Of a DNA stretch of 64,000 bases, positions 1,264 through 45,239 are shown piece after piece. The stretch lies in IMG/VR virus record IMGVR_UViG_3300025437_000011, positions 1 to 64,000 of that record; one strand, written 5' to 3'. This stretch comes from a virus. The translations under genes and the position numbers were made by a program. The notes under the pieces were generated by a model. The model was not told the DNA's origin, did no database searches, and saw only the letters and a list, made by a program, of their open reading frames with translations. Within the stretch, counting starts at the first letter, position 1, and each line of letters starts with the position of its first letter.

Positions 1264-3155
1264 TAGTTGGAAAACAAAACAGTAAGGGCTGGAGTGATGT
1301 TAATAAAGAATTAATGGAGTTAAAGGGCGAGCTAACTGATGCAGAGGCCAGAATTTCACTAGCTAAATTTTTAAGACATAATTTGGCATTTACAACTGAA
1401 CTCATGTTGGGCATTACTTTAGAGTCCTATCAAGAGCTTACCCTTAAATCATTCTTTCATAGAAATTATTGCATGCTGGTTTGGGGTCGTGGTTGTGCAA
1501 AGAGCTTTACTGCAGCAGTTTATTGCGTATTAAAATGCATTTTTGAACCGGGTACAAAAATACTCATAGCATCTATTAACTTTCGTACTAGCCGCAGACT
1601 GTTTAATGAAATTGAAAAATTCTTGGCCACTCCGGCTGCCGCATTGGCCCTGCAATGTTTTGGAGCTAAGATGAAGCGTAATGACCAATACGAATGGACT
1701 ATTAATGGTGGTAGTATTACGGCTATCCCTCTAACTGGAGAAAAAATTCGTGGTATACGCGCCAACGTTCTTATTCTCGATGAGTTTCTACTTCTTCCTC
1801 CGGATATTATTGATAATGTTTTAATGCCATTCTTGAGTTCACCTAGAGATGTTAGTGATAGAATTCGTACTAGAAAATTAGAAGATGAATTAATTAAAAA
1901 AGGATTGCTTCATGAGGATAATCGGCAAATTTTTGAGAATACTTCTCAGATGTTAGCTCTAAGTTCTGCCAGCTATACATTTGAGCATTTATATAGAGTT
2001 CATCAACAATGGGCCTCACTTATTGAGGAACCAGAACAACAGGAGTCAACAAATGGAGAACTGCCCGGCACCTACTTTATCTCACAATTAAGTTACGAGG
2101 CGCTTCCTCCGCACATGGTAGATCAGGCGGCAATTCAGTTGGCAAAAAATGGCGGAAGTTCACATAACTCATTCTTGCGAGAGTACGCCGCTAGGTTTAT
2201 TGATGGTGGTGATAGTTATTTCTCCCCAAAGAAAATGTTTCAATGTACAATTCCAGATGGAGAATATCCTACTACAAAAATTGTAGGAGAACCAGACAAA
2301 AAGTATGTTCTATCTATTGATCCTAACTTCTCATCGTCTAAGAGTGCGGATTATTTTGCAATGAGTTTAATTGAGCTTGATGAACAAAAAAAGCAGGGTA
2401 TATTAGTTCATGGGTATCAGGCGGCAGGATCTTCACTTCAAGACCATATAAAATATTTATATTATATATATAAGAATTTCAATATAGCATTGATAGTAAT
2501 TGACCATGCGGGTGCCGATACATTTATAGATGCCGTGAATAATTCTACGTTTTTTAAGGACATGAATAGACAAATTAAGTTTTTTGACTTTGATTCTGAT
2601 AAAGAAAACGAAGATTATGTTGCCATGTTAAAGGAGGCGGGCAGGCAGTACAATAAAGATATCGGCGCTATTTGTATTAAGCAATACTTTACTTCTTCCT
2701 TCCTAGTACGTGCAAATTCTTACCTACAAACTTGTATTGATCACAAGAAGATTTGGTTTGCATCAAGGGCAAGTAACCATCCGGATATTCTAGAAAATAT
2801 GTTTACAATGAATCTTCCGATGGACTATGTCTACCCAAGGGGAATTGGCGATAAGGCAGATAATGAATATGAAACTAAAAAATTAACTGTTCGTGATTTT
2901 ATCGAACAGCAGGATTTTATTATTCAAGATACCAAAGATCAGTGCGCTAACGTTGAGGTAACAAGTACCTCTAGAGGAACGCAAAGTTTTGATTTACCAT
3001 CAAATCTTCGTAAATCCACTAGCGTTAACCGTGCCCGTAAAGATAACTATACAACCTTAATGTTGGGAAATTGGGGTGTAAAGTGTTATTTTGATATAAT
3101 GACCCCTGATAATTTAAAGAAAAAAAACACTGATTTTGTTGCGGTGCTGATTTAA
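1254..3155 (+). CDS. terL: Terminase large subunit
   Basis: Walker A-like GRGCAKS, IRGIRANVLILDE Walker B, LSSA coupling motif, REYAARF linker, nuclease LSIDP and C-terminal KDNYT; directly upstream of portal-sized gene. Confidence 0.9.
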   Translation: MALIVGKQNSKGWSDVNKELMELKGELTDAEARISLAKFLRHNLAFTTELMLGITLESYQELTLKSFFHRNYCMLVWGRGCAKSFTAAVYCVLKCIFEPGTKILIASINFRTSRRLFNEIEKFLATPAAALALQCFGAKMKRNDQYEWTINGGSITAIPLTGEKIRGIRANVLILDEFLLLPPDIIDNVLMPFLSSPRDVSDRIRTRKLEDELIKKGLLHEDNRQIFENTSQMLALSSASYTFEHLYRVHQQWASLIEEPEQQESTNGELPGTYFISQLSYEALPPHMVDQAAIQLAKNGGSSHNSFLREYAARFIDGGDSYFSPKKMFQCTIPDGEYPTTKIVGEPDKKYVLSIDPNFSSSKSADYFAMSLIELDEQKKQGILVHGYQAAGSSLQDHIKYLYYIYKNFNIALIVIDHAGADTFIDAVNNSTFFKDMNRQIKFFDFDSDKENEDYVAMLKEAGRQYNKDIGAICIKQYFTSSFLVRANSYLQTCIDHKKIWFASRASNHPDILENMFTMNLPMDYVYPRGIGDKADNEYETKKLTVRDFIEQQDFIIQDTKDQCANVEVTSTSRGTQSFDLPSNLRKSTSVNRARKDNYTTLMLGNWGVKCYFDIMTPDNLKKKNTDFVAVLI

Positions 3156-3167
3156 AAAAAGATTTAA

Positions 3168-3173
3168 GTGTAA
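3168..3173 (+). promoter_or_regulatory. GTGTAA candidate late-promoter element upstream of portal
   Basis: Same hexamer recurs before many structural genes (see findings). Confidence 0.6.
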
Positions 3174-3192
3174 TAGACTTTTATAATATATA

Positions 3193-17660: not shown

Positions 17661-18371
17661 ATGGAAAACAATAAAAAGTGGTACTACCAATTTGATGCCG
17701 AAAAAGAAATTAAAAATGAAGATGGAACTACTTCAAAAGAAATTTCTAAATTCGCGATTCTAAAGCCTAATCGTCGTACTCGTGAAGATGGAGAGTTATT
17801 TTACGCCAGCGAAACCTCGCGTTTCGCAAAGGCTGGAGTTCTCCCAAAGGCCGCTTGGAATACAATTTTATCAAATGGCGGCGGAACAATTAGTGATGAT
17901 GATCGTGAGATTTATGGAAAAATTCTTGCCGATTTTCGTAGTAAGAGTTTTGAGTTACAGTCGCTATTAATTAAGACAGATGGAGAAAGAACTGAGCAGG
18001 AAAAAGCCCAGTTAGATTCCCTAACGGTTGATCTTGAAGAAATCAGAAAAAAGATTCAAAGTTTTGAGTCTCAGCAAATTAATATTTTTGAGAATACCGC
18101 CGAAGCAAAGGCAAGAAATCGCACTATTCTTTGGTGGGTTACTAACTTGGCTTATAAGAGTGTTGACGGCAATTATGTCCCAATGTTTGATGCGGCAACT
18201 CTTGACGAAAAACTAGACCTATATGATGAGCTTGAGCAGGCGGACGATGGAGGTTTCTTAATGAACGTTTTACAAAAAATTACTTATTTGGTTACCCTGT
18301 GGTTCTTGGGCCGGGCTGAAACTCCCGAAGACTTTGAACGGCTCGATAAAAGTTTAACGGAGAATAAGTAA
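17661..18371 (+). CDS. Putative tail assembly chaperone
   Basis: Acidic helical protein between tail tube and tape measure genes. Confidence 0.5.
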   Translation: MENNKKWYYQFDAEKEIKNEDGTTSKEISKFAILKPNRRTREDGELFYASETSRFAKAGVLPKAAWNTILSNGGGTISDDDREIYGKILADFRSKSFELQSLLIKTDGERTEQEKAQLDSLTVDLEEIRKKIQSFESQQINIFENTAEAKARNRTILWWVTNLAYKSVDGNYVPMFDAATLDEKLDLYDELEQADDGGFLMNVLQKITYLVTLWFLGRAETPEDFERLDKSLTENK

Positions 18372-18372
18372 T

Positions 18373-19431
18373 GTGCAACAAATTGAGTATAGTCGCGCAT
18401 ATGCAGAAATAACTCGCGCCTATTCCGAAACGATCATTGATGGTCGTTCCTATTTTTTTAAACATCCCACTCAAATAGAAAATTTTGATATCTATGATAG
18501 GTATCATGCTATTTGTGAACATGCAAAACTGAAAGGACTTCAAACTGAAGATCAAAAAATTGAAACAGCTATAGCTGGCGGTTGGTGGACAAGACAAAAA
18601 GAAGACCATATTGAACAATTAAAAACAATAATTAAAAATCTTCATACCACAAAAGAAAGATTATTATTGCCATCTCAAAAAAAAGATGTTGAAAGACAGA
18701 TAGAAAGAAATGAAATGATCTTACTATCTTACGGCAGGGAAAGGCGCGAGGCAGTTGGATACACTGTAGAGCAATATGCCAATGAACGCTTTCAGGATGA
18801 AACGATACTAAAACTAACCTATAAAAATAGAGAACTAACTGAGTTGGTGTTTGGCAAGCAAGATGAATATTACTATTTATCTGATGACATCGTGGACAAG
18901 ATAAGAAAGGGCTTTGATGCACATGCGGCAGTTCTTTCTGTTAAAAATATTAAATTAGTAGCCGCGACGGGATTTTTTCAAAACTTATTATATATTGCGG
19001 AAACTGACCCCTTTAATTTTTGGGGTAAGCCAGTGGCGCATTGTAGTAAGTATCAAATTGATCTTTTGATATATGGTAAGATGATTAAAAATTTAATTAA
19101 ATACCGTGCGGAAAGCGGAGACGCTTTGAGTGATGAAACGCTTTCAGATCCGGAAAAGTTAGTGGCAGTTATGGATGCCGGATCGGCAGCAAGTTCATCG
19201 TCGGGTTCAAGTTCAAGCTCAGCTGTAAATTCTGCCTTGAATTCAAATTCTGGCCAGTCAGAGGGAAATGTGGCAAAAGTTTCCAGTATAGTTGGGGCAA
19301 CATCTGAAGACCTAAAAAAAATGGGAGTTAAGATAGAAAAAATTGGTGGAAAAAGTTTATTAGATCTAGCAAAAGAAAATGGCGGAAAGCTTGACAAGGC
19401 TGATTATCTCAGTGCGCGACTGAGAATGTAA
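18373..19431 (+). CDS. Putative second tail assembly chaperone
   Basis: GTG start 1 nt after previous stop; directly upstream of tape measure; Ser-rich linker. Confidence 0.45.
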   Translation: MQQIEYSRAYAEITRAYSETIIDGRSYFFKHPTQIENFDIYDRYHAICEHAKLKGLQTEDQKIETAIAGGWWTRQKEDHIEQLKTIIKNLHTTKERLLLPSQKKDVERQIERNEMILLSYGRERREAVGYTVEQYANERFQDETILKLTYKNRELTELVFGKQDEYYYLSDDIVDKIRKGFDAHAAVLSVKNIKLVAATGFFQNLLYIAETDPFNFWGKPVAHCSKYQIDLLIYGKMIKNLIKYRAESGDALSDETLSDPEKLVAVMDAGSAASSSSGSSSSSAVNSALNSNSGQSEGNVAKVSSIVGATSEDLKKMGVKIEKIGGKSLLDLAKENGGKLDKADYLSARLRM

Positions 19432-19470: not shown

Positions 19471-22400
19471 ATGTCTACAACCGCAGAAGTCAAAATTTCA
19501 GTAGATACAAGTGCAGCAGAGCGCTCTGTAGATGCTTTGTTTAAAAAAGAACGCACGTTAAATGTAAATGTTAAGGGTGGCCAACCACTAGGAAGAATTA
19601 CCGGAGATTTAAGCGAGTTTGATAAGTCAATGGCGGCGGCCAATGCGCGTGTTATCGCTTTCGGTGCTAGTGCTAGTGTTGTGTATGGAATTGAAAAGGC
19701 TTTTCATTCACTGATTGATTCTACTATTGAGGTACAGAAGGCACTAAATCAAGTTCAAGTTATCCTAAATGCTTCGGATAATCAAATGACTAAATTTGGT
19801 TCAAGCTTATTTAATGTTGCAAAACAAACCGGACAAACTTTTGAAACTGTTGCAGAGGCGGCAACCTTACTTTCTCGTCAGGGATTAGGAATGGAGGAAA
19901 CTCTAAAAAGAACAAATGATGCTCTGGTTCTTTCTCGTATTACTGGCATGGATGCGGCAAAGAGTGTTCAGGCACTAACTGCGGCTGTTAACTCGTTTAC
20001 TTCACAGGCCGTAACTGCTACTGAAGTTGTTAATAAATTTGCTACAGTTGATACGCAGTTTGCTATCGGTGCAAAAGATTTGCCAGAAGCTCTTGGCCGC
20101 GTTGGATCTTCTGCGGCTCAGGCTGGTGTTTCACTAGATCAACTTATTGCGCTAGTTACTGCAGCACAGGTTGCCACGGCTCGTGGTGGTGCAGTTATTG
20201 GTAACTCATTCAAAACAATTTTTACAAGATTAGATAGACCAAAAACCCAAAGCTTATTGGAGAGCATGGGTATTAAGACTACAGATGAAAATGGTAAAAT
20301 CAAGGGAACAATTGAATTACTACAAGAACTTGCCAAAAGCTATGATACATTAAATAGAACCCAACAGGCTCAGGTAGCAGAAAAGGTTGGTGGCGTTTTC
20401 CAGATTAACATTTTAAAGGCAACTCTTGCCGACTTAAATAGAGAATATTCTGTTTATAATAACGCATTAAGGGTTTCTCAGGGCGCAACTGACGATGCGT
20501 ATAAAAGAAATGAGGCCCTAAATCAGACTTATTCTTCACAGTTAAATGCGCTTAAATTAAATGCTACGCAATTAGCGGCCACGGCTGGCGAATCTTTGTT
20601 TGGCCCATCCATGAAGAAGTTGATTGGTGGGGGCAATTCTCTTCTTGGGGGTTTGAATGAAGCAGATTCAAATAGTGTCGGCTCAAAACTGGGTAAGGGT
20701 ATTATGGATGGCCTTGGTCAGTTTATTGCCGGGCCGGGTCTAGCTTTAATTGGCGGTGTTTTAGTTAAGCTATTAGCGGACTTTACAAAATTTGCGGCAA
20801 GTGGGGCGAAAGATTTATTGGGTCTAAATAATGCTGCCAAAGACCAAGAGGCGCTACAAAAAAGTATAACAGAAATTTTATCCAAAGACCCTTCAATTTA
20901 TAAACAGATTGAAAGTGGTGCTGCAAGTGTTAATGAGGTTGCGACTAGACTATTGGCAAATTTAAAATTACAGACGGTAGAGCTTGAGTTACAATCAAAG
21001 CTTTCTGCCGAAATTGCCGCTCAAGCATACGGCGGGGGCGCAAGAATTGGACCGGGTGGAGTTCCAAGAGTTAAAGCGGCTGGAGGCTATATTCCGCAGT
21101 TTGCCGAAGAAGAGTCGATGGCGAGAAGTATGGGTGCTGGAAGTGATGTTCGTGCAATGTGGGGTAAGGGCACGATTGGTGGTCAGCCGTTCATAATGAA
21201 CAATAAGGAAAGGGAAATTCCAAATTTTGGTGGTAGTGGTGACTCTGCTGTTATTCCTAGATATGCTGGCGGGTGGGTTCCAAATTTTGCTGATTATAGA
21301 TTAGAAATAAATAATCTGGGAAAAGGGGGTGCAACTTTAGCTAAGTTAATAGGGATTGATGGGGGAGGCACTCCTTGGGGCGACAAAGGTACAAATATTA
21401 AAAGTGCATTAGATCAGATTAATAAGGGAAGGTTTAAAATTAGTGATGGCGATATAGAAAAACTAAAATCACTAAAAGATAGTCAAGTTGCAAATAGGCC
21501 ACCCACAGAGGTAAAAGATAATGGCGAACCTGGTAGTATTACGGTTTCTGGGGGGCAGGGCGGTAGTGAAAAAACGGTAAATTTTGATAATTATGATCTT
21601 GCTAATATAGATGAAACAATAGCAAGTAAGTATGGTGTATTTACCCCAACTGGGGGGCAAGTCGGCATCCAATCAAAACAAAGGGTTAGTGAAATTTCTC
21701 GCCTAAAAGGCTTAAGAGTTACAGGACATTTAGTAACTAGGTTGCCAGGTAAATCAATCTTTCCCCTAAATATTCCTGAGGGTGATTTTGATAAAGTCAT
21801 GGATCAAGCTTTTTATCCTCCTGTTAGACAGGTTGCAGGATTGGTTGCGAAATCATTTCAACCAATTGGAAAAAAAACGTCTCAAGAGGCAATTATTAAA
21901 GGTATTGAGGAGAATGTTCTTACTCCAGCGGTAAAGGGAAGTCTTTTTGAAAAAATTCTAGGAGCAGCCTCTGTTAAATCATCTGAAATTTTTGCTAAGT
22001 CAAATGATATTAAAAAAGATCAAGATGCTTTTGATTATGATCCAATTGCAAATTATCCGTATTTACAAAAGGCACTAAACATATCGGTAGCTGGTGAAGC
22101 TAAAAATTCATTAGACGCAGCTCATAATCTTCCAGGAAAGATTTTAAGAAAAGATTCTGCTGTATTAGAGGCTTTAAAAACCAAGATTTTAAAAGCAACC
22201 GAACCACAGAAAAAGGCGGCTGGTTATATTCCAAATTTTGCCGACGCGCTACATGAATCCATTGCTCGTGAAATTGGCGCTGGAGCGCCGAGTGGCGGAA
22301 TCTACGTTAAACAGTATTCTGAACTCGCCGGGGCTAATAACCCGATGGGATTGGGCGTTTTTAACTCTCGTGATGAGGGTTCACCATCAAAAGAAAGGGG

Positions 22401-25400
22401 CGCGATTCGCCGCAAGGGTTATGCCGCTGGATATATTCCTAACTTCGCAGATGACAGTTCTGGATCTAATTCTTCATCTTATGCAGCGGTCGGTATTGAG
22501 CTTTCTGGACTTGCTACCATGTTGGCGTTTGGTAGTAATGGGATTAGAGAAGAGTATCGAAAACAAATTCAGACTATTTCTGCAGCAAATAAAAATATTT
22601 CCGAAGGATCTTTGAAGCTTAAGGCTGGACTTGCCGCAGGAGGATCTAATATTGCTCTGGCCGTTTCTACTCTGGGGCCAATTATTACTAGCACGATTGC
22701 TAATAATATAGACCAATCTACAAAGTCTGGAAGAGGTTCTGCATCAGCCACTAAGGGTATCGGAGATATTTTAAGTTATGGCGGAACTGGTGCAATGATT
22801 GGAACAGCTATTGAGCCGGTCATAGGAACTGGAATTGGTGCTGTTGCTGGCGTGTTAGTTGGTTTAACTACAACAATTATGGATGTTGGTAATCAACTAA
22901 AAACTGATATACCAGAATTAGAGGCAGCATTTAAAAAAGCTAGTGAAAACCAAACTCAAATACAGCAGCAGTCTACTAATATAATCCAAACTGCAACTGA
23001 ATTAAAAGAATTAACAGAAGCTAATAAGCCTGAAAATGCTGAGAAAATAATTGCAACAAAAGCAAAACTAACCGAACAGATTTCTTCATATACTGGATCA
23101 GCAGATAGGGCCACATTAATTAGTGATTCCGTAGGTAATATAGAAAAATTAGTAGCAGATTTTGCAAAAGATAGAAGAAATTCAGCAGACCAAACCGCCA
23201 AAGCTAGAGCAGAGGCGGACGTGGCTGCCGAATTAAATAAGGGAAAATTTTCTGGGCCATTTGGTGGTGGTGTTGGCATTACTAATTTTGAAAAAACTGC
23301 AGCGCTTGGGAATAGGGAAGCTATGGCTGGGGTTAATATGACTGTAGAAAATATACAAAAAAGACTAACCATTCTTGATTCTGCCAGTCGTGCAAATGAA
23401 AATAGCTCGCTAAGTGTTAAAGCTGTAGCCGAAATTGCTGGAATAAGTGGAGTAAATTTTGAAAATTTTAAAGATCAGTATGAAACTCAGGCCCAACAAA
23501 GAGCCGCGCTTGCCCTATTAGTTCGGGATGAGATTAACCAAAAGCAAGAAGATCTGAATAGCGCCCAACAATTAAATAAACAACAGCAGGAAGCTGCGGA
23601 CGCGGCTGCAGCTGCGGCTGCTGCCCAGCGTCAAATTGTTGAAAAAGATCGTAATTATGTAGCGGCTTTAGAAGAGGCGATAAAAGCTGCGAAGTTTAAT
23701 ATAAGCTTTGGTCAAGAGCGTAGGGTGGCTAGGGCAAACCAGATTGCCGAAATGGGATTTGGTGGGGCGGGACTACAAGATCAAATTGCCAATATTTTTA
23801 GTGGAACCATTGGTAAGGCACGGGCAGAGGCGCCGTTAGATTTGGAGCAAGAAATTTTAAAGTCCATAGGAAAAGAGGGTAATCCAGCTAACTTAACAGA
23901 TGAGAAAATGAGGGCAATTATGTCCGAGGCGCTTAAACCGGAAAATACGAAAGGAGGCGTATATAATGCAAATGCTATAGCTAATAGTATTGGCGCGTCT
24001 GAGGAATTTTTAGCGGTGCATTCTGAAGATAAAGATAAGGGTCTTAAAGCAATATCAGATTTACAAAAAGCCATTGAAGAGGGTAAGTCAAAACTATATG
24101 ATGCACAGCGCGAAGCCACTACTCTATCTGCTCAAAAAATTGATGAATTAATAAGAGTTAATTTCGCTGGTCTAGACAGAGTTGGTGGAGGAATCGAGTC
24201 TGTACTGAGTTATAAAAACCCATCACAAACAGGAGATGATGTTGCCAAAGCAGTTAGGGACTATAATTTAATTTCGAATTCAAAAACTGCAAATTCCGCA
24301 GACATATCTAAAGCAATTTTAGATGTGATGGATAGCGTTTCAAAATTGACTGGTGGCGCGTCAGTAATGACTACAAGTGACCAACTATTTAAAGATTTAA
24401 CAGTAGGAATTAAAGACTCATTATCAAAGAGTTATGATATTGGAGAATCAAAGTTAATGAGTATGAAGGGTGGTGAAGGTATAGTTCGAGCTATTGAGAA
24501 AGATTTATTAGAGCGAACTGGGGAAGTTGATAGAAATAAGGCATTGGCTGATATTGCCGAATATAGTGAAGCAAAAAAACATAATGTTGAAGATACTACG
24601 GGTTTAGGATCAAGACTTTATAATCAAGTTCTTAACGAACAATTAGAAAAATTTGAAAGACTTTCTTCGAGAAATAATGCGCCAGAAATGACTTCTGATA
24701 CAAAGGCTGCAATAGAATTAGCAATTAAAAGTGGCGCGACAACGGGAGCAAAAGATGCAACTGCTGCGCAGATGATAGTTAGTAACGCACAGGATGCGAC
24801 GGCATTTAAGGATATTAATCAATTTCATAATGACTATAATACTAAGACAGATAAGCAAATAGATTTACTAAGAAAGATAGCAATCAATACTCAAGAATCG
24901 GCTGCAGCTGGTAAACCTAGTACAACAGTAACCGTTCCAAGCTCGCATGCTGCTGGATATGTTCCTAATTTTGTTAACTCTACCATTGAAGAATCTTTGG
25001 CTCGTTCATTGGGCGCTAAAAATCCGCGCGCACATTATGGAAGAGGTCGAATAGGTGGAAAGCGTTTCTTAATGAATAGCGAGGAGATGGAGATTCCAAA
25101 TTTTGCAGGGGGGCCTGATTCGGCTGTTATTCCGATGTATGCAGATGGAAACCTTCCGCTCGAAATGATAGATTTAAGTAAAGTAAAAACTAAATTTGGT
25201 ACTTATTATAATCCAAAAAAGTCTGGCTTGGGAACTCGTGGAAAATTTAGTGGATTAAATTTTGGAACAGAAGAAATGTCGGAGTATGGCTATAATACTA
25301 CATATACCAAAGATATAAAAATAAATAAAGAGTTATTTAGTTCAAATTTAAGCTCCGATAAATTTTCTTTACTTGAAAAGTATACACCAGCAGAATTGCG

Positions 25401-27861
25401 TAGATTTGTAGCTGCACATGAAGCACATCATGCGAGTGGAGATATTAAAACTAAACCGATTTTAACAGAATTATATAATTCTAGTGAAACATTTGCAAAT
25501 TTTCAAGGGGGTTTTTCGGCACCTAGGGGCGCGAATGCCATACAAAGAATTGGCAGTGGAATTTCTGCTGTAATTGATTATTGGAATGATCCTAGAACAT
25601 TAGATCATTATGCAATGGCAAAATCAGAGAGATTTAAGAGCGCTAGGGGTCATTTATCTAGAATGACAGGCCCTTACGCGGATGAGTATTATGATTTAAA
25701 AAAACCACTTTCTGATACTGAGAAAAAATTACTGTATTTATTTAGTAAAAAATGGGCAGAATTCAATTCGGGTGGAAAAGGTGCATTTATAAATAGAGAT
25801 GCCAATCTTATTACGAATTTAGAGGAGTCTGCGGGTAAGATTTTATCTGGCAAAGCTTTGAGTAGTTTTTTGGGTAATAGTGTAAAGGGTGCCGGATTGG
25901 TGGCTGGAGATGTATTGGGATTATTAGGTAGTGTGCCGGGACAAATACTTGGTGGAGCGGAATCAATGGGGGACGCAACTGCAGATACATTTATAGAAAG
26001 AGAGCGCGACAGGCGGGAGAAGGCTCAAGGTGCGGCAATGGCAGCTGCAATCTCTAGGGAGATAGCTGGCGGCGCTCCAGCTTCTTCTATCTATACAAAA
26101 TCATGGGATCAACTTAAAAATCCATTGAACCCTATGGGTTTGGGGGTATTCAATAGTCGTGATGAGGGGTCTCCTTCTTCGGAATTAAACGCTATTATTA
26201 AAAAGGGTTATGCGGTCGGGCATATTCCTAATTTTGTTAAAGAGGATGAGGATAAAGAGGAGGCGGCTAGGAGAAAAAAGGTTCAGGAAGACCTCGCAGA
26301 TTATGGGAAGTGGGATACCACTCAGGAGACCGCATTTCTCTTCCGCGGGCGACAAGTCATATTTGAGAAAGCGGCGGAAAAGCGTGACGTCGAACTTATG
26401 AAAGAAGCGGACAAACAAATGTCTGATGAATTAAATAAGGGAAAATTTTCTGGGCTTGCCGGATGGCTTGGTATGGGTACTGGTATTGATAATGTTGAAA
26501 AAGTTGCAAAAATTGGGAATAGACGAGAAATGGCTGGAATTGCTCCGACTGTGGAAAATATACAATTAAGACTAAAAAAGCTAGAATGGGTAGAGAACAT
26601 GTTAAATATCATAGACGAGGTCAAAAAAGATAATCCAAACGCGTTCAGCGGGCGCGACGGCGCGCAGCGAAGGGCCGAATTCGATATCGGGGGGGAGGCA
26701 AGGGGGCTTGGATTGAATGCTAAAAATAATATGAATTTGGCACGTCAGAAAGGATCTGATCATGAATATTTGACCGAACTGAATCTATTGCTTCAAACCG
26801 AGATCCTACAAATGCAAAAACTCTTGGATGAAACTGAAAAGAAAAATAAGGATGAGAAGCAGAGACGGCCTTCAGTATCTACAACTCCACCGTCAGCCGG
26901 GGTGGCGGGACGACCTTCGATATCTATAACTCCACCGTCAGCCGGGGTGGCGGGACGACCTTCGATATCTACAACTCCACCGTCGAGCCCTTCAACATCT
27001 ATAATACGAGATGCTATAACAGCGGCCTCGCTACCAACCACAAGCGCTGTACAAAGTAATATTCCCGCGAGTGTTTCAGATAAAGATGCGGCTAGAAACA
27101 CGGCGATAGATAATCGAATATCAGAATTACCAATAATACAAAATACGACACGAAACAGGTTACCACAGCATAAAAATCCGGAAGATTTTCCTTGGTCTCC
27201 TACTCAAGGTGGTCTACATTCAGGCAATAGGGCGGGCCGTCTTGGTTATCATATGGCGCATAGAAATGATTCTCAAATCGGCCCGGAAAGTCAAGAGTCA
27301 ATCGAAAATAGAGAATTACGTAATAAACGTTTCGAAATAGAACGCCTGATGACGATTAGAAATCACGCTATGCAAACTGGTAATGTGGGTTTAGTTAACC
27401 AAATAGATACAAATAAGGGAGATTTAAATCAAGCATGGAAAGATATAAAAGATGAGGGTATAAGAAAAAGAAAAGAAAGAGAACCAGAGCCTGATGCATG
27501 GGTGCAAGAGGCGCGACAGGCGCGAGAGCAAAAGATGCAAGGTGCAATAGAAGACAAGGCGCGTAGATTTTTACAAGAAAGAGGCAGTCCAGAACAAATA
27601 GAAAATTTCAACAAAGCACATCCAGATAATAAAATAGAAAAAAATAATAGTGGAAAAACAGCGGGTGCTCATGTTCCTATTACAATTAATATAGCTAACT
27701 CATCTAAGGAGTTTGCTCAGGGTCTTGCGGCTCATGTTGAAAAGCATGCCAAGGAATATGTAGAGAAACATATGAGCCAAACAAAGCAAATTGCTGCGAA
27801 TGCCGCCAAAAAAGATAATAGTCTATACGGCCCACCAATGGGTAATAATAGAAATGTATAA
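19471..27861 (+). CDS. Tape measure protein with repeated modules and embedded enzyme-like domains
   Basis: 2796 aa; N-terminal phage minor-tail domain pattern (VAEAATLLSRQG, LGRVGSSAAQAGVSLDQL, GAVIGNSFKTIFTRL); glycine-zipper TM segment near 22780-22870. Confidence 0.85.
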   Translation: MSTTAEVKISVDTSAAERSVDALFKKERTLNVNVKGGQPLGRITGDLSEFDKSMAAANARVIAFGASASVVYGIEKAFHSLIDSTIEVQKALNQVQVILNASDNQMTKFGSSLFNVAKQTGQTFETVAEAATLLSRQGLGMEETLKRTNDALVLSRITGMDAAKSVQALTAAVNSFTSQAVTATEVVNKFATVDTQFAIGAKDLPEALGRVGSSAAQAGVSLDQLIALVTAAQVATARGGAVIGNSFKTIFTRLDRPKTQSLLESMGIKTTDENGKIKGTIELLQELAKSYDTLNRTQQAQVAEKVGGVFQINILKATLADLNREYSVYNNALRVSQGATDDAYKRNEALNQTYSSQLNALKLNATQLAATAGESLFGPSMKKLIGGGNSLLGGLNEADSNSVGSKLGKGIMDGLGQFIAGPGLALIGGVLVKLLADFTKFAASGAKDLLGLNNAAKDQEALQKSITEILSKDPSIYKQIESGAASVNEVATRLLANLKLQTVELELQSKLSAEIAAQAYGGGARIGPGGVPRVKAAGGYIPQFAEEESMARSMGAGSDVRAMWGKGTIGGQPFIMNNKEREIPNFGGSGDSAVIPRYAGGWVPNFADYRLEINNLGKGGATLAKLIGIDGGGTPWGDKGTNIKSALDQINKGRFKISDGDIEKLKSLKDSQVANRPPTEVKDNGEPGSITVSGGQGGSEKTVNFDNYDLANIDETIASKYGVFTPTGGQVGIQSKQRVSEISRLKGLRVTGHLVTRLPGKSIFPLNIPEGDFDKVMDQAFYPPVRQVAGLVAKSFQPIGKKTSQEAIIKGIEENVLTPAVKGSLFEKILGAASVKSSEIFAKSNDIKKDQDAFDYDPIANYPYLQKALNISVAGEAKNSLDAAHNLPGKILRKDSAVLEALKTKILKATEPQKKAAGYIPNFADALHESIAREIGAGAPSGGIYVKQYSELAGANNPMGLGVFNSRDEGSPSKERGAIRRKGYAAGYIPNFADDSSGSNSSSYAAVGIELSGLATMLAFGSNGIREEYRKQIQTISAANKNISEGSLKLKAGLAAGGSNIALAVSTLGPIITSTIANNIDQSTKSGRGSASATKGIGDILSYGGTGAMIGTAIEPVIGTGIGAVAGVLVGLTTTIMDVGNQLKTDIPELEAAFKKASENQTQIQQQSTNIIQTATELKELTEANKPENAEKIIATKAKLTEQISSYTGSADRATLISDSVGNIEKLVADFAKDRRNSADQTAKARAEADVAAELNKGKFSGPFGGGVGITNFEKTAALGNREAMAGVNMTVENIQKRLTILDSASRANENSSLSVKAVAEIAGISGVNFENFKDQYETQAQQRAALALLVRDEINQKQEDLNSAQQLNKQQQEAADAAAAAAAAQRQIVEKDRNYVAALEEAIKAAKFNISFGQERRVARANQIAEMGFGGAGLQDQIANIFSGTIGKARAEAPLDLEQEILKSIGKEGNPANLTDEKMRAIMSEALKPENTKGGVYNANAIANSIGASEEFLAVHSEDKDKGLKAISDLQKAIEEGKSKLYDAQREATTLSAQKIDELIRVNFAGLDRVGGGIESVLSYKNPSQTGDDVAKAVRDYNLISNSKTANSADISKAILDVMDSVSKLTGGASVMTTSDQLFKDLTVGIKDSLSKSYDIGESKLMSMKGGEGIVRAIEKDLLERTGEVDRNKALADIAEYSEAKKHNVEDTTGLGSRLYNQVLNEQLEKFERLSSRNNAPEMTSDTKAAIELAIKSGATTGAKDATAAQMIVSNAQDATAFKDINQFHNDYNTKTDKQIDLLRKIAINTQESAAAGKPSTTVTVPSSHAAGYVPNFVNSTIEESLARSLGAKNPRAHYGRGRIGGKRFLMNSEEMEIPNFAGGPDSAVIPMYADGNLPLEMIDLSKVKTKFGTYYNPKKSGLGTRGKFSGLNFGTEEMSEYGYNTTYTKDIKINKELFSSNLSSDKFSLLEKYTPAELRRFVAAHEAHHASGDIKTKPILTELYNSSETFANFQGGFSAPRGANAIQRIGSGISAVIDYWNDPRTLDHYAMAKSERFKSARGHLSRMTGPYADEYYDLKKPLSDTEKKLLYLFSKKWAEFNSGGKGAFINRDANLITNLEESAGKILSGKALSSFLGNSVKGAGLVAGDVLGLLGSVPGQILGGAESMGDATADTFIERERDRREKAQGAAMAAAISREIAGGAPASSIYTKSWDQLKNPLNPMGLGVFNSRDEGSPSSELNAIIKKGYAVGHIPNFVKEDEDKEEAARRKKVQEDLADYGKWDTTQETAFLFRGRQVIFEKAAEKRDVELMKEADKQMSDELNKGKFSGLAGWLGMGTGIDNVEKVAKIGNRREMAGIAPTVENIQLRLKKLEWVENMLNIIDEVKKDNPNAFSGRDGAQRRAEFDIGGEARGLGLNAKNNMNLARQKGSDHEYLTELNLLLQTEILQMQKLLDETEKKNKDEKQRRPSVSTTPPSAGVAGRPSISITPPSAGVAGRPSISTTPPSSPSTSIIRDAITAASLPTTSAVQSNIPASVSDKDAARNTAIDNRISELPIIQNTTRNRLPQHKNPEDFPWSPTQGGLHSGNRAGRLGYHMAHRNDSQIGPESQESIENRELRNKRFEIERLMTIRNHAMQTGNVGLVNQIDTNKGDLNQAWKDIKDEGIRKRKEREPEPDAWVQEARQAREQKMQGAIEDKARRFLQERGSPEQIENFNKAHPDNKIEKNNSGKTAGAHVPITINIANSSKEFAQGLAAHVEKHAKEYVEKHMSQTKQIAANAAKKDNSLYGPPMGNNRNV
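21076..26235 (+). repeat. Dispersed duplicated peptide modules A and B bounded by AG(Y/W/H)(I/V)P(N/Q)F motifs
   Basis: Module A at about 21076-21290 and 24949-25150; module B (NPMGLGVFNSRDEGSPS) at about 22216-22449 and 26050-26235. Confidence 0.9.
26866..26985 (+). repeat. 45-bp tandem repeat, about 2.7 copies (RPS(V/I)S(T/I)TPPSAGVAG)
   Basis: Units start at 26866, 26911 and 26956 with near-identical DNA. Confidence 0.95.
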
Positions 27862-39381: not shown

Positions 39382-40167
39382 TTATTTAATTTTTGAATTT
39401 TTATTCTTAATCCCACTTACAATAGTAAAGATTGATAAAGGAGGGATATCATCACATGATTGCCATGTTTCAGCTCCTTCAATTTTCTTTTTAATTGCAC
39501 CCTCTTTAATTTGCTCAAAAGAAATATTATAATCATTCATTGTTTTTTGCAATAGAGACGCTGGCTGGGAAGATGTTCCCTCTGATTCTTGAGTGATGGG
39601 TGATGAGTTTTTTCCGCCCATTTCATCACTACCAACAATATGAATCTTTAAAAAACTACGCACACAACGAACAAAAGCGCGATTTTCAGCAATCGCCATT
39701 AAAAAGTTTTTAGCAAAATTATGTGTATTATCCCAATGGGCATCGGCAAGGGATGAAAAGCTAACTGCTTTACTGCCTGTCTCATAATTTGGCGTAAATT
39801 CAATAGTACATTTAACTGCAACATAATCCGGTCTAGATTCTATAACCTGATATGAAACATCTTTAAAGCCCCTAATTTGAGCTAGTTCCTTAATACCAGC
39901 TAGTAGGATTAATAATTTATTATCTGGAAGTGTTGTGACATCTAAAGACTTTAGGTCAAGATTTTGATCATTTTTAAAGGCATCCTTATTTGGAACAAGA
40001 TACTCTGGGCGGATCATTGCGCGCCAGTTAATCGTATTGTCATCATTAAAGACATAATCAACCCCATTTAAAAAACCATATTCATCTCTAGAATAGCCAA
40101 TTACTTTATCTAAATATCGAGTCACGCCAAGCTCACTCGGAACTTCAGTATTTTTATCTTTTGCCAT
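39382..40167 (-). CDS. Putative Rad52/Sak-like single-strand annealing protein (likely start ATG 40167)
   Basis: VAVKCTI...FSSLADA...AIAENRAFVRCVR matches the Rad52-fold pattern; promoter overlaps the TTG at 40173. Confidence 0.5.
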   Translation of the reverse strand: MAKDKNTEVPSELGVTRYLDKVIGYSRDEYGFLNGVDYVFNDDNTINWRAMIRPEYLVPNKDAFKNDQNLDLKSLDVTTLPDNKLLILLAGIKELAQIRGFKDVSYQVIESRPDYVAVKCTIEFTPNYETGSKAVSFSSLADAHWDNTHNFAKNFLMAIAENRAFVRCVRSFLKIHIVGSDEMGGKNSSPITQESEGTSSQPASLLQKTMNDYNISFEQIKEGAIKKKIEGAETWQSCDDIPPLSIFTIVSGIKNKNSKIK

Positions 40168-40172
40168 ACCCA

Positions 40173-40201
40173 ATCGTATAACAATTTTTTGAGACTGTCA
40201 A
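40173..40201 (-). promoter_or_regulatory. Sigma70-type promoter TTGACA-N17-TACGAT
   Basis: Minus-strand -35 at 40201-40196, -10 at 40178-40173; ATG follows 5 nt later. Confidence 0.7.
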
Positions 40202-40205
40202 TAGT

Positions 40206-41384
40206 TTATTCTATAAGCCAACAGAATTCTAAATCTTGCAAAAGAGTTTCTTTATTTTTTATTTTACTTAGTGGGATAAAATCATTACTTGATTCAATTG
40301 AAATATCTTCTAGTTGACAGGCCCTGCTATTATAGACTTTTTGATTCGATAATAAGATTCTATTGGTTTTAAATTTAAAATTATCTGATAGCTCTGGAGC
40401 GTTCTCTACATTTTTCTTGAATTCTTGTATGCCACAAAATTCCATTAGTTGAAATTTTCTATGCTCAAGCTCATCTTTTGTAGAACAACAGGTATCGAAT
40501 ACACAGACATATGGTATTCCTAATTTTTCCATTTGTTCTATAAAGGGTAATTCTACTTCTTTGGTTACTTCATAAATAACCATTGTTAAATTTTGTTTAA
40601 ATTGTAAGAAAGGCGTACAATTAAATCCTTTATCGGTTACTATGGCGCATCTTCTAGTGGCAACGTTTTGTAACATTGACCTAAATATTAATTCGTTTAA
40701 TGAATCTGAATAATCTAAACGTATATTTAATACATCTTCTTTAAAGAAGTTTGGATCTATTACTTGATCTGCTGTTGTTTCAATTAATCTATCCTTATAT
40801 CTATTTCCAGTATAGATTGTTTTGATTTTTATATCGTCAGATTCAAATAGTAATTTATTTACCGATGAGATGATATCTTCTATTTTAATTAGATTAATTG
40901 TTTTTGGTGACTCATTAGGATTAAAGCTAGGCTTATGATTGTCGCTTGGCTTTAAATTGATCTGTTTATTATTCCAATACGGCCCGGCGATTTCTGGCAG
41001 AGTTACGCTATATAATGCAACCGTCGGGATGTCAAATGCACTACACATGTGTACCGCAAAACTATCATTACCAAGATGTAAGCTCGAATTGGATAGGATA
41101 TATGCAGTTTGATTTATAGTTGTTTTGCCTTGTAGATTAATGCATGCATTTAAAACTTTATCTTCTGGGCCTCCAATTTGAATTATTTTATAACCATTGG
41201 CTTCTAGTTTGGGTAATAGTAAATTAATAACTTCTTGAAAATAATCATAGCACTTGCCGGGCATGCCACTACTATTTTGTACAGTAATATACTTTTCTGC
41301 ATCTATTGGGAAAAATTTCTTTACAATTGTAGGCTTCCCAATTTTGCTTCCCGTTGATAGTGCGTATCTGTCTAGTAAGTGCAT
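40206..41384 (-). CDS. GT9 (heptosyltransferase-like) C-terminal-domain protein with C-terminal extension
   Basis: IIQIGG, INLQGKTTINQTAYIL, HLGNDSFAVHM, PTVALY. Confidence 0.75.
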   Translation of the reverse strand: MHLLDRYALSTGSKIGKPTIVKKFFPIDAEKYITVQNSSGMPGKCYDYFQEVINLLLPKLEANGYKIIQIGGPEDKVLNACINLQGKTTINQTAYILSNSSLHLGNDSFAVHMCSAFDIPTVALYSVTLPEIAGPYWNNKQINLKPSDNHKPSFNPNESPKTINLIKIEDIISSVNKLLFESDDIKIKTIYTGNRYKDRLIETTADQVIDPNFFKEDVLNIRLDYSDSLNELIFRSMLQNVATRRCAIVTDKGFNCTPFLQFKQNLTMVIYEVTKEVELPFIEQMEKLGIPYVCVFDTCCSTKDELEHRKFQLMEFCGIQEFKKNVENAPELSDNFKFKTNRILLSNQKVYNSRACQLEDISIESSNDFIPLSKIKNKETLLQDLEFCWLIE

Positions 41385-41385
41385 A

Positions 41386-43317
41386 TTAATTATTGAGATT
41401 AAGATCTAATTTATCAACTCCGTTATGCATATAGTCAAGCATCCTTTGGGTTCCGAAGTATGGATGATACGCGACATCGCATATTCCCTTCACTGATCCG
41501 GCCCCTTCTAATGCAATTACGTTATCCATTGCTGGATGATAAGGAATCCATTTATCTATGTAGGGATTTCCGTCTATTACGTCTTGATACTGTGGCTTAG
41601 TCGCAATATATATTTTATGGGTTTCTTTTGGATATCTGTTTCTTAGTGATTCAAAAATTGATGTAATTAAAAATACATCGCCTAGACTTTCGGGCTGTAC
41701 TAATAAAACCCTCTTGAATCCTTCATCTTTTTCAAAAAGCTGGTCAATAGAAGTTATTTCATTTTTTTTCTTTATATCTTCTTGCGCTACATGTCTAAAA
41801 TAATTTTCAATATCTATTTTTGGACGGTTTTCGGAAAGTTGCTTTAACCAATGTTGAACACCTTCGTCTTCATCTATAACTTCCCTATCTAGAATAAGTT
41901 TATATAAAGATTTTACCCACAGTTTGGAATCTTCATTGTTTGGTACTTGAGCGGAAGGGTTTGGATTACTTTGTGACGCTTTAAACTCGAAAACAGAATC
42001 TTCCAGAATAGAAAGTGAGTCAATAAACTCTTCAATTTTTTTTCCATTATTTTGAATGGAATAATTGTCAAGTGCCCACTGCCTAGATAGGCGTTCTAGG
42101 GTAGCTTGTTTTTCTAATGGCATCTCATATACTTTTTTGAATACATTGCACATTGATGAGGCTGATGGTTGCGATTTTAAGAATTGTGTTCCATGTTCTG
42201 TATAAAAGGCAAATTTAAATTCCATGCTACCCTGATTTAATTCAATAATATCCTCACCAAAAGAATAAGGACAAGTTGCTACTATTTTTTCTGTTAGTGC
42301 GGCTTCTACACAAGGTAATTCACAAGCTCCAGATGTTGCTGGATGAGAATAAAGGCTGAATATATTATAAATTTCATTTAATTGTGAGTCTGTAACTCCC
42401 AATCCAACATTTGTGGTTATAAGTGTTTTTCTTTTTGTTAGTGGATTTTCAATATCTTGACCAGTAAATGGTGCAATAAAATACTCTTTTGTTTCTTTAC
42501 AGACATAAGTACAAAGAACTTCTTTCTTGTCTACTCCATATTGTTCGCATAGTCGTGAAATATCCCATCCTTCTCCGTAGTGAGTATGAGTATATAGGTA
42601 AGTATTTTTAATCTGAGGATTTTGTCTCTTGAATTGCGCGTAGGCTTCAATTTGAGTATTAATAAGTTTTCTTAATTGATTTCTAAAAACAAATCCAATA
42701 ATGAAACTATCTTGCGGTAAGTTATGTTTTTGTAAAATTTCATTAATTTTTTCCTGTGGTAGTTTATAAAAACTATCTGTATTAACTAGTGGATACTGAT
42801 TTTTAACATGCGTATGTCCAAGCTTGTGTAGTTCTTTTCTTGCGAAATCGCTCCAAGTCCAATAGTGATTTATTTTCTTTGCCTTCTCAATTGTATCGGG
42901 AAGTAGGGGTAGAGAATCAAATGTATTCCAGCATACAGTCGGTATAGACTTAAAGAAATTTTTTTCAGTTACAAACTGGGAGCCCCACGTATCATTAACC
43001 GAAAATACCACATCTGGTTTAAATTCTTTGACTAAATTTTCAATTTCCATCTCTCCATAGGCAGCAACCCTACCCAAGTTTGGATCTTGATTTATTTGGG
43101 CAATTTTACTGGGATCTTCAGGAAGAACTCCTACTGTTTTCCAAGGAAATCTTTGTGTATGTTGACCGTTTTTTTGCAATCCTTGCGCGGCATTGCAGAT
43201 TTCGTATTTACCAGTTTGATACAAATATTTTAATAATAACTTTGTATTTTTGCCAAAACCAGTAAAGGCTCCAGCGTAATCACTGAGGAATAAAATTCTT
43301 TTCTTTCTTTCTGTCAT
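41386..43317 (-). CDS. Multidomain glycosyltransferase: GT4-like + DUF4214-like helix bundle + GT9 N-terminal domain
   Basis: TGFG, FVFRNQLRK, LNEIYN...ELPCVEA (GT4); WVKSLYKLILDRE..DEGVQHW; VLLVQPESLGDVF...GNPYID (GT9 N-domain). Confidence 0.75.
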   Translation of the reverse strand: MTERKKRILFLSDYAGAFTGFGKNTKLLLKYLYQTGKYEICNAAQGLQKNGQHTQRFPWKTVGVLPEDPSKIAQINQDPNLGRVAAYGEMEIENLVKEFKPDVVFSVNDTWGSQFVTEKNFFKSIPTVCWNTFDSLPLLPDTIEKAKKINHYWTWSDFARKELHKLGHTHVKNQYPLVNTDSFYKLPQEKINEILQKHNLPQDSFIIGFVFRNQLRKLINTQIEAYAQFKRQNPQIKNTYLYTHTHYGEGWDISRLCEQYGVDKKEVLCTYVCKETKEYFIAPFTGQDIENPLTKRKTLITTNVGLGVTDSQLNEIYNIFSLYSHPATSGACELPCVEAALTEKIVATCPYSFGEDIIELNQGSMEFKFAFYTEHGTQFLKSQPSASSMCNVFKKVYEMPLEKQATLERLSRQWALDNYSIQNNGKKIEEFIDSLSILEDSVFEFKASQSNPNPSAQVPNNEDSKLWVKSLYKLILDREVIDEDEGVQHWLKQLSENRPKIDIENYFRHVAQEDIKKKNEITSIDQLFEKDEGFKRVLLVQPESLGDVFLITSIFESLRNRYPKETHKIYIATKPQYQDVIDGNPYIDKWIPYHPAMDNVIALEGAGSVKGICDVAYHPYFGTQRMLDYMHNGVDKLDLNLNN

Positions 43318-43319
43318 GC

Positions 43320-43763
43320 TTAGGAAAATAGACTGTTTAGTGATGCTTTTAAATATTCTCTCAATTTGATTGATTCTACAATATTAAAAGCAATTCCTAC
43401 TCCGTCAATTTTTAAAACATGACCAATAAACGCGGAGTCCTTAATGTATGGCTCAAAAAAAATTGGAGTAGTTTTATCGCCATTTTTGTGAACTGTTGAA
43501 AACTTTTTTTCGCTATTGGATTCTAGTACATATAGAATATTACAAAGCTCAAGATCATTGAGTTTAATTTTCTTATGTTTTTCTGGATTATTAACATTCT
43601 CCTTAAAAGATCCGGTCTTAGAAGAATCATCCCATGAGTGTTGTTTTAAAAGGTTAATGTAAAATCCTGCTTTTTTAGGGTCTTCTATAGAAGAATTGCA
43701 CTCAAAAGTAGCGCAAGTGCCATTTCCAGTTTTCTGTGGCTTGTAAAATTCAATTCTTTTCAT
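43320..43763 (-). CDS. Hypothetical protein, possibly nucleic-acid binding (PC4/Whirly-like pattern)
   Basis: Repeated strand-strand-helix pattern; weak call. Confidence 0.4.
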   Translation of the reverse strand: MKRIEFYKPQKTGNGTCATFECNSSIEDPKKAGFYINLLKQHSWDDSSKTGSFKENVNNPEKHKKIKLNDLELCNILYVLESNSEKKFSTVHKNGDKTTPIFFEPYIKDSAFIGHVLKIDGVGIAFNIVESIKLREYLKASLNSLFS

Positions 43764-43781
43764 CCTACATAATCATTTATT

Positions 43782-44177
43782 TTATTGAAGTTTTAAAAAA
43801 AACTTTAGTAAAACACTGACTAATCTAGAAAAAAAGAAAATTACCCCTAAATAAAAAATGTTCCCACAGACTAAAGAAGAAAAAACAGACAGCCATACAC
43901 CGAAGCAAATCGGACAAGATAGGAGCTTTAATAAGAAACTTAAAATTTTATTTTGGGTAAAGTAATATTTTGTAGATACATACTCTATATAGCCAAACTC
44001 AAGATCTTGCTCGCCCCTATTTAAGTACTCCTCTATCAGTAGAAAAGTATATACTGACTTAGGTAGTAATGCAGAAAAAAGTTTTAAATATACTGGAAAG
44101 AAATCAGTATAGTACCATAGATGGGAAACTAGTCCCACAAGGAAAATTTGTTGAGTTATTAATATTAATATTGACAT
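43782..44177 (-). CDS. Membrane protein with CxxC motif (DUF1360-like)
   Basis: Hydrophobic helices and LLSCPICFGVW. Confidence 0.55.
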   Translation of the reverse strand: MSILILITQQIFLVGLVSHLWYYTDFFPVYLKLFSALLPKSVYTFLLIEEYLNRGEQDLEFGYIEYVSTKYYFTQNKILSFLLKLLSCPICFGVWLSVFSSLVCGNIFYLGVIFFFSRLVSVLLKFFLKLQ

Positions 44178-44200
44178 GCTCTTAAAAAACCGTTCATAAT
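44171..44200 (+). promoter_or_regulatory. Sigma70-type promoter TTGACA-N18-CATAAT
   Basis: -35 at 44171-44176, -10 at 44195-44200, upstream of the sigma factor gene. Confidence 0.5.
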
Positions 44201-44352
44201 TAGGGAACCGAAAACAGCCATTGCAAACTTCGCTTCGCTCGTTTACAATATTTACTCGTAAACTCGTAAATGTTTAATAATTATTATTTAATTTATTGAA
44301 CAAATCAAAATTTAATTTGACTAACTAATAAAGTTGTTTCACATTTGTATAA

Positions 44353-44955
44353 ATGACACTAGATCTAGAAAATATTAAAGATGAAAAGTTAGTAGAGAAT
44401 GTAAAAACAAAATCCTGCAATACTAGTCTAACAGAACTGATCAGTAGACACAGTGGAATCTGTTTTAGTATGGGAAAAAAGTTTTCTCAATACGGATCAT
44501 TCAAGCTAAATGATTTAAACGACAATAAAGATTGGATTATATATTCCGCAGCACTATCGTTTGATTCTTCCAAGGGTGCAAAATTTTCTACTTGGCTAGG
44601 TAATCAGGTAAAGTATTACTGTTTGAATTTAAAAAACAAATCGTCGAAGTATGTTGAAACCGAAGAGTCAACTATTGAATTTTTAATCAACCAGTATTAT
44701 AATGAAAATAAATCAACAGACTTGAAGGCGCAAATATTGTATACAGTACAAGATATCCTAGATCAAATTAAAGATAAGAATATAAAAAACGCAATTCATT
44801 ATAGATACTTTTCGAACCAAGACCGAATTTTAAATTATTCCGAAATAGGCGAGATACTCAACGTGACACCACAAACCGTCTTGAACTGGCATAATAAATT
44901 TATAGAACTTGCGAAAAAAAAGTTGACTTCCCTTAACAATAGCGATATAATCTAA
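44353..44955 (+). CDS. Phage RNA polymerase sigma factor (sigma70-like regions 2 and 4)
   Basis: FDSSKGAKFSTW (region 2) and YSEIGEILNVTPQTV (region 4 HTH). Confidence 0.85.
   Translation: MTLDLENIKDEKLVENVKTKSCNTSLTELISRHSGICFSMGKKFSQYGSFKLNDLNDNKDWIIYSAALSFDSSKGAKFSTWLGNQVKYYCLNLKNKSSKYVETEESTIEFLINQYYNENKSTDLKAQILYTVQDILDQIKDKNIKNAIHYRYFSNQDRILNYSEIGEILNVTPQTVLNWHNKFIELAKKKLTSLNNSDII
44923..44951 (+). promoter_or_regulatory. Sigma70-type promoter TTGACT-N17-TATAAT
   Basis: Near-consensus; ATG 44961 follows the -10 box after 9 nt. Confidence 0.8.
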
Positions 44956-44960
44956 AACGT

Positions 44961-45236
44961 ATGGAAAACACAAACACAAATGGCGATAAGCCAAAGCTAG
45001 AAGAGGCCGGGGCACTATGGAAGCGCACCAGCAAGGCAGGGAATACGTATCTTAACGGTTCCTTTAAGACAAAAACAGGAGAAGAGGTTAAGGTTCTGAT
45101 TTTTAGTAACTCCTCAAAGCCAGAGGGTTCAAATCAGCCAGACTACAGGGTTTATTTTGATAAGCCACTTGAGGCATCGGCTCAAAAGCCAGCCGCCAAG
45201 AAGGCACCCACAAAGAACGACGATATCCCATTTTAA
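44961..45236 (+). CDS. Small ssDNA-binding protein (DUF736-like) with SSB-type acidic tail
   Basis: GALWKRTSKAGNTYLNG, NQPDYRV, C-terminal DDIPF. Confidence 0.7.
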   Translation: MENTNTNGDKPKLEEAGALWKRTSKAGNTYLNGSFKTKTGEEVKVLIFSNSSKPEGSNQPDYRVYFDKPLEASAQKPAAKKAPTKNDDIPF

Positions 45237-45239
45237 GCC

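Follow-up and report, generated by a model that had tools for sequence, protein, structure and literature searches.

We examined the first 64 kb of the 108-kb IMG/VR virus record IMGVR_UViG_3300025437_000011 (this stretch of 64,000 nucleotides is referred to below as the window) and found that its tape measure protein (TMP) carries large inserted domains, here called cargos, between copies of one conserved unit. Homology to the closest relative compared breaks at the short peptide that ends these units, which we call fence units. We propose, with a probability of roughly 0.55, that the fence units are neutral joints which let inserts be carried and replaced, that the core insert is enzyme-like and that a second cassette was gained. 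The fence units would act as structurally neutral joints within the ruler and, being conserved, would also be the sites where recombinants stay viable, so that domains could be replaced without disturbing the assembly of the TMP. Cassette 1 (A1, cargo 1 and B1) would be the core of the family, with an enzyme-like insert under diversifying exchange, and cassette 2 (A2, cargo 2, B2 and C2) may be an acquired zincin-like, membrane-active module. Being part of the TMP, the inserts would be housed in the lumen of the tail and exit ahead of the DNA.

The gene in question occupies nucleotides (nt) 19471-27861 on the plus strand and consists of one uninterrupted frame of 2796 amino acids (aa). Judged by its N-terminal domain, the product is a TMP, which we assign to a large tailed phage that has not been cultured. 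The PhageMin_Tail domain (Pfam PF10145), which forms the conserved N-terminal portion of the backbone, was found at nt 19819-20394 (aa 117-308) with an E value of 5.7e-29 and a score of 101.9 bits against a gathering cut-off of 33.2. Twelve PHROG tape-measure families also matched the N-terminal ~600 aa, mostly inside aa 1-500.

Six copies of the motif ..G.[IV]P[NQ]F are present in the TMP, starting at nt 21079, 21265, 22216, 22423, 24949 and 26212, and EIPNF occurs twice, at 21214 and 25090. When the protein was shuffled 20,000 times, the six-copy motif was seen at a mean of 0.0036 copies and a maximum of one. When the entire 108-kb record was translated in all six frames, it was confined to the TMP open reading frame (ORF), bar two matches in frames of 6-9 codons. 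A sequence-only reading of this DNA had listed all of these copies, the six to within 3 nt of the positions given here. It had further described duplicated modules A, B and C around two unrelated cargos, and self-BLAST bore this out. A1 (aa 531-599) and A2 (aa 1822-1891) were 57% identical (E 8e-21), B1 (aa 931-995) and B2 (aa 2194-2258) about 61-62% (E 4e-25) and C1 (aa 1247-1303) and C2 (aa 2313-2372) 55% (E 2e-15). The DNA-identical start reported for the two C copies proved to be a run of 28 nt, from 23230 in C1 and from 26428 in C2, and self-BLAST detected no similarity between cargo 1 (aa 609-913) and cargo 2 (aa 1897-2183). A and B had been taken for separate kinds of module. The modules are real but the distinction between them is not, as A and B are jointly alignable at 34% identity (E 2e-5). 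Since they are paralogous, the TMP contains four copies of one unit of ~75 aa instead of two kinds of module.

The units and cargos are arranged as follows. A1 (nt 21073-21294, aa 535-608) is opened by GYIPQF and closed by GWVPNF. It is followed by cargo 1 (nt 21295-22209, aa 609-913) and then by B1 (nt 22210-22452, aa 914-994), which has GYIPNF at each end of a core with the sequence NPMGLGVFNSRDE. Downstream lie two uncharged, hydrophobic, Gly-rich stretches (nt 22624-22881; aa 1052-1074 and 1116-1137), which a composition scan marks as a candidate membrane-active segment, and module C1 (nt 23191-23400, aa 1241-1310), supported by self-BLAST and by the run it shares with C2. In the second cassette, A2 (nt 24943-25158, aa 1825-1896) is opened by GYVPNF and has a degenerate end (DGNLP). 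Cargo 2 (nt 25159-26019, aa 1897-2183) comes next, then B2 (nt 26020-26241, aa 2184-2257), which lacks the N-terminal motif and is closed by GHIPNF, and finally C2 (nt 26389-26610, aa 2307-2380), the internal duplicate of C1.

A profile built from 10 units was searched against 1.84 billion representative proteins. It matched 844 clusters (50% identity) at E<=1e-3, 318 of them at E<=1e-10. The lengths and unit counts given here are those of the best 150 of the 844 clusters. These best 150 matches were mostly 1300-4800 aa long with 2-11 matched stretches per protein, and an iterated local search located 493 units in them, usually 2-5 in each. The first unit was nearly always near residue 535. 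About two thirds of the sampled members had more than two units, indicating that TMPs with several cassettes are common. The related IMG/VR contigs were 50-178 kb in length. No unit was found in 50,697 cultured-phage records, where INPHARED matches were confined to aa 36-446 of the TMP, and A1 and B1 searched alone gave no match to INPHARED phages at E<=0.01. A peptide-pattern scan of GTDB species genomes likewise revealed no prophage copy, and a DNA pattern for the double motif produced seven chance matches there, none of which encoded a unit. The family is therefore large yet so far known from uncultured phages in metagenomes only. In the sister viral contigs L006-L023 (about 2965-3190 per locus), A-type units followed by the triad domain described below were observed. 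These loci had no detected B unit within 3 kb, and their flanking peptides were degenerate (..ASGF.., ..GGNLPKY..). The end of A2 in the present TMP (DGNLP) resembles this type.

Across the family, the fence unit is ~75 aa long and is bounded on both sides by a near-invariant peptide, A-x-G-[YF]-[IV]-P-N-F-A. Nearly all conservation in the iterated profile falls on this peptide (G 0.79-0.81, P 0.77-0.83, N 0.85, F 0.80 and A 0.61), with weak conservation in between. The codons of the motif vary synonymously, so that selection acts on the peptide and not on a DNA site. AlphaFold2 was run on cassette 2 with an alignment of 36 rows. The core of A2 (aa 1838-1891) was modelled as one helix followed by four short strands with a predicted local distance difference test (pLDDT) score of 92-96, and the flanks that bear the motif scored below 50 in the models of both cassettes. 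On these models, the conserved peptide would belong to linkers that adjoin a small folded domain. Foldseek and VIA-align searches with both whole cassette models returned generic helical matches only (best Z 5.4-5.7, Foldseek E>=2.1).

The position of the peptide next to a well-folded mini-domain, at regular intervals and in low-confidence linkers, would also fit a role in docking. The peptide could be a short linear motif that binds an assembly partner, be it a tail assembly chaperone, the tube lumen or other TMP chains, and the units could keep three chains in register around inserts that are not coiled coils, whether these are enzymes or spacers. The restriction of the motif to the TMP is what an assembly-specific contact would lead one to expect, and IPNF-like and VIP.Y strands recur within the A unit as well. 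Nevertheless, no partner was identified, and the monomer models, which are weak evidence in this respect, showed no confident packing of A against B (predicted template modelling score 0.28-0.36). A prediction with three copies of unit A scored 0.00 and, as it had no controls, is not evidence either way. We consider docking an unlikely explanation for the units.

The closest relative compared was L002 (P0003 in the protein set). The N-terminal 500 aa of the TMP are 75-91% identical to L002; by region, the two proteins are 82% identical at the N-terminus and 84-89% in unit B, and only 11% in the cargo 1 domain. In a blastn comparison, homology between the two genes was restricted to nt 19471-21290, 22220-22454 and 25051-25142. 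The first two blocks correspond to aa 1-607, ending at the closing motif of A1, and to aa 917-995, from the opening to the closing motif of B1. B1 is thus an isolated island of 235 nt with 81% DNA identity to L002. The third, nt 25051-25142, is a match of 92 nt between A2 and the A unit of L002. The motifs therefore mark the boundaries at which relatives differ, with both homology blocks ending at motifs, in agreement with one of the suggestions of the sequence-only reading, that they are recombination anchors. From these breakpoints we take the junctions to be places where recombinants survive.

In the wider family, BLAST clustering divided the 244 inter-unit segments into many clusters, so that the sequence between the modules is not invariant among homologues. 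Among pairs of TMPs with N-termini at least 80% identical, 28% had a BLAST-detectable first insert in common, and for pairs with N-termini at least 90% identical the median identity of the insert was 20%. These comparisons indicate that the sequence of cargo 1 is decoupled from that of the backbone and appears to be exchanged between lineages as very divergent alleles. We also considered a diversity-generating retroelement as the source of the divergence. This was ruled out because the identity of ~11-20% spans the whole domain and is not a matter of scattered sites.

Despite this divergence, many of the inserts are related to one another. A jackhmmer search started from cargo 1 joined 89 of the 244 inter-unit segments, present in 89 of the 140 TMPs, into one superfamily of ~240 aa. 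Cargo 1 consists of a variable N-terminal part followed by a triad domain with the conserved signature G823-x-x-F826-E827 ... F854-D855 ... E876-A-K878 (nt 21937-22104). Over 90 aligned sequences, G823 was conserved in 100%, F826 in 99%, E827 in 91%, D855 in 90% and K878 in 72%. The last motif has the form (D/E)xK, with the variants EAK, DFK, DYK and DIK. A regular expression for E..D..ExK matched 21 inter-unit segments as compared with 3.25 in shuffles. The superfamily was placed in the first gap between units 64 times and in the second 22 times, and in the large majority of fetched viral loci, those with degenerate motifs among them, the domain came after unit A. Because it follows unit A in most TMPs of the family, it is the core insert of the family and not a free cassette. 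The view of cargo 1 as an arbitrary swappable effector was accordingly given up; it is a very divergent member of this core domain.

The arrangement of the conserved residues in cargo 1 is like that in PD-(D/E)xK nucleases such as Hjc-type resolvases, in that a Glu in a helix (G..FE) is followed by an Asp ~28 residues on and by the (D/E)xK motif ~21 residues after it. It is unlike these nucleases in that no family, profile or fold match was obtained and in that the Asp and (D/E)xK are separated by a helix-like segment. Based on the conserved residues, we read cargo 1 as most likely a metal-dependent phosphodiesterase or a nuclease-like enzyme, and at the level of motifs an enzymatic function is plausible for both cargos.

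Cargo 2 is predicted to be a helical domain that contains HEAHH (nt 25417-25431, aa 1983-1987), with Glu 2006 located 19 residues past the second His, and that ends in a Gly-rich hydrophobic tail. HEAHH and Glu 2006 are invariant in the three known homologues, which are 47-64% identical, and the model puts HEAHH in a helix (residues 152-167 of the model, pLDDT about 72). A protein atlas offered weak leads only (0.76-0.84; LPD23 and M48). It is plausible, at motif level, that cargo 2 is a zincin-like HExxH+Glu domain with a membrane-active-looking stretch. This cargo is rare. Two homologues were found: P0005, a TMP of 2631 aa that has both cassettes and both cargos in common with the present one, and P0152, a fragment of 1075 aa that was the sole match to cargo 2 among longer proteins. 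No free-standing homologue of 158-504 aa was found.

The fence units of cassette 2 bear on its origin. A2 and B2 find their best matches among units in the first cassettes of other phages (68% and 67%, respectively), ahead of A1 and B1 of their own protein (57% and 61%), which argues for acquisition from another TMP or for an old duplication, and not for a recent tandem copy. A search of the other 149 listed family proteins revealed no copy of module C; among the proteins compared it is restricted to this TMP, where its two copies appear to have arisen by local duplication. Cassette 2 is probably an accessory block gained by recombination with the TMP of another phage, followed by the local duplication of module C.

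A number of results weigh against our proposal, most of them against its enzymatic part. The AlphaFold2 model of cargo 1 was poor, with a mean pLDDT of 54.9, blocks ranging from 34 to 78 and values below 50 in the motif region (model residues 306-327 and 347-353). Cargo 1 had no Pfam match at E<=5, its family gave none at E<=0.1 over seven homologues, and there was no PHROG match and no meaningful PDB sequence or profile match. In PD-(D/E)xK nucleases the Asp and (D/E)xK residues are on a beta-hairpin, whereas in cargo 1 the segment between them (L..LFG) is helix-like. Cargo 2 matched nothing in Pfam, PHROG or the PDB, and its model was all-helical (pLDDT 36-73), of low confidence ahead of the HEAHH motif and without the beta-sheet that a zincin needs. 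Its three homologues are too alike for the invariance of HEAHH and Glu 2006 to prove catalysis. A Pfam scan of 36 diverse TMPs of the family yielded one SNase match and two marginal ones only. Finally, folded domains of 30 kDa would not fit the lumen of a siphovirus tail of the T5 or lambda type. An enzymatic fold, which had been expected of the cargos, was thus not obtained; what they have are the E/D/(D/E)xK and HExxH+E signatures.

Alternatively, the inserts could simply be part of the ruler, that is, fast-evolving elements of length or structure in which the E/D/K and HExxH residues are structural or coincidental. The failure of either cargo to match an enzyme fold or family agrees with this, as do the helical prediction for cargo 2, which is like that of ordinary TMP segments, and the near absence of Pfam matches in the 36 family members. 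On the other hand, the conservation of G, F, E and D at 90-100% in a superfamily that is otherwise ~20% identical would be difficult to account for if there were no functional site, and the E..D..ExK pattern exceeds its frequency in shuffles. In addition, a recognisable SNase domain is present in one family member. This Pfam match (E 6.5e-6) came from one of 15 TMPs (P0018, P0037-P0039, P0042, P0050, P0065, P0067, P0103, P0110, P0111, P0128, P0135, P0138 and P0151); a regular expression for the SNase active-site motif did not locate the matched domain. We regard a pure ruler function of the inserts as quite improbable, and infer that the inserts may be enzymatically active.

Another explanation for the peptide is that G-[YF]-[IV]-P-N-F-A is a cleavage site and that the TMP is a polyprotein, separated into its modules either prior to ejection or following it. 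The cut could be made by a protease of the phage or the host or by the HExxH domain, or the chain could cleave itself through Asn. One near-invariant peptide of 7-9 residues at every module boundary, in linkers predicted to be unstructured, is what the cleavage sites of viral polyproteins look like, and the peptide is selected as a protein sequence and not as DNA. Cleavage of the TMP is known from T5 and lambda, and zincin-like peptidases have been proposed as processing enzymes in polyvalent proteins (PMC5512222). Against this, the rest of the genome does not contain the motif, and a scan of 38 ORFs of the window revealed no recognisable protease. The HExxH cargo itself cannot be the general processing enzyme since it was found in only three TMPs of the family. 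Moreover, the cut site of T5 (..SFVPR|AEGG) has only an aromatic-aliphatic-Pro core ([FY][VI]P) in common with the motif, and hhalign of the unit against the C-terminus of the T5 TMP, pb2, gave a probability of 0.6%. Processing at the peptide is, in our judgement, doubtful.

A bolder version holds that the peptide cleaves itself, driven by its Asn, or is cut by a protease, and that the whole TMP family is a tail-lumen polyprotein which releases changeable enzymes ahead of the DNA, the divergence of the core insert reflecting an arms race with host immunity. The enzymes so released would be the nuclease-like core domain and accessory modules such as the HExxH domain. We hold this version to be improbable. 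Compared with viral polyproteins such as those of picornaviruses and potyviruses, the TMP is similar in having one short conserved peptide at every module boundary, in linkers, and different in being a structural tail component of a double-stranded DNA phage. We continue to favor the proposal that the fence units are neutral joints, under which delivery of the inserts into the host would follow from their place in the TMP.

The surroundings of the gene provided little annotation. Neither PHROG nor Pfam assigned a tail function to the genes neighbouring the TMP. None of the ten large ORFs that flank it (nt 9291-38710), which likely include the capsid and tail proteins, had a PHROG match at E<=1e-3, pointing to a very divergent phage lineage; for the same ten, Pfam gave weak hints only (Phage_capsid_4, BppL_N and Laminin_G_2). 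The gene order of a ~340-aa ORF, the TMP, a ~545-aa ORF and a ~530-aa ORF recurs in the viral contigs L002-L004. Immediately upstream of the TMP, at nt 17661-19431, are two ORFs of 236 aa and 352 aa, the latter with a GTG start one base past the stop of the former. They occupy the usual position of tail assembly chaperone genes, and a GTG-start ORF of ~340 aa is found at the equivalent place in L002-L004. In the C-terminal part of the TMP (nt 26866-27000), a Pro/Ser-rich repeat of 15 aa, RPS[VI]S[TI]TPPSAGVAG, occurs three times in tandem. Elsewhere in the window (nt 322-1263 and 39382-53238), Pfam identified a protein with an ERCC4 nuclease domain, both ribonucleotide reductase subunits, RecA and a phage lysozyme, as well as GDP-mannose 4,6-dehydratase and glycosyltransferases of the GT9 and GT4 types.

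TMPs with embedded domains are already known, as are polyvalent virion proteins. The TMP of mycobacteriophage TM4, as Piuri and Hatfull reportedly described in 2006, has a peptidoglycan-hydrolase motif. T5 pb2 has a hydrophobic stretch, a cleavage after R1127 and a metallopeptidase motif with muralytic activity (PMC10038345). The present TMP is like both in that domains other than the ruler are embedded in the ruler, and it pairs hydrophobic Gly-rich stretches with an HExxH segment; by analogy, the zincin-like, membrane-active module that cassette 2 may represent can be compared in function with the metallopeptidase motif and the hydrophobic stretch of pb2. It has no sequence or profile similarity to pb2 or the TM4 protein past the N-terminal domain. 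It also differs from both in that its inserts are fenced by a repeated unit and peptide and are exchanged between close relatives, and in that the signature of its core insert is nuclease-like and not that of a wall hydrolase.

In polyvalent proteins, a zincin-like HExxH+Glu domain is a typical hub and has been proposed to process the polypeptide (Iyer et al. 2017, PMC5512222); that paper mentions tape measure proteins 0 times. Our TMP resembles polyvalent proteins as a very large, virion-associated protein that strings together several unrelated domains. It is unlike them in that their families (LPD and others) were undetected by Pfam in this TMP and in that no fence peptide has been reported for them. 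The signatures present in it are at the level of motifs. A full-text search of the literature found no paper that links tape measure proteins with the motif described here. What is new is the fence unit with its peptide, its use throughout a family and the exchange of inserts at the peptide. The present TMP adds a form with two cassettes and an HExxH cargo, a single superfamily that brings the nuclease-like inserts together and is decoupled in sequence from the backbone, and breakpoints that coincide with the motifs at the level of DNA.

The usual picture of a TMP is that of a passive ruler, now and then with a wall-hydrolase motif. The ruler described here carries a conserved yet hyper-divergent enzyme-like domain, together with optional domains, joined through one peptide at which natural recombinants break. 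With the unit profile, the whole family can be retrieved and hundreds of unannotated domains marked out for functional screens, and the fence unit may be a natural site for the insertion of cargo into phage tails. Should the inserts be delivered, the lumen of the tail would be a second route of protein injection beside that of head-packaged proteins, one with modular exchange built into it.

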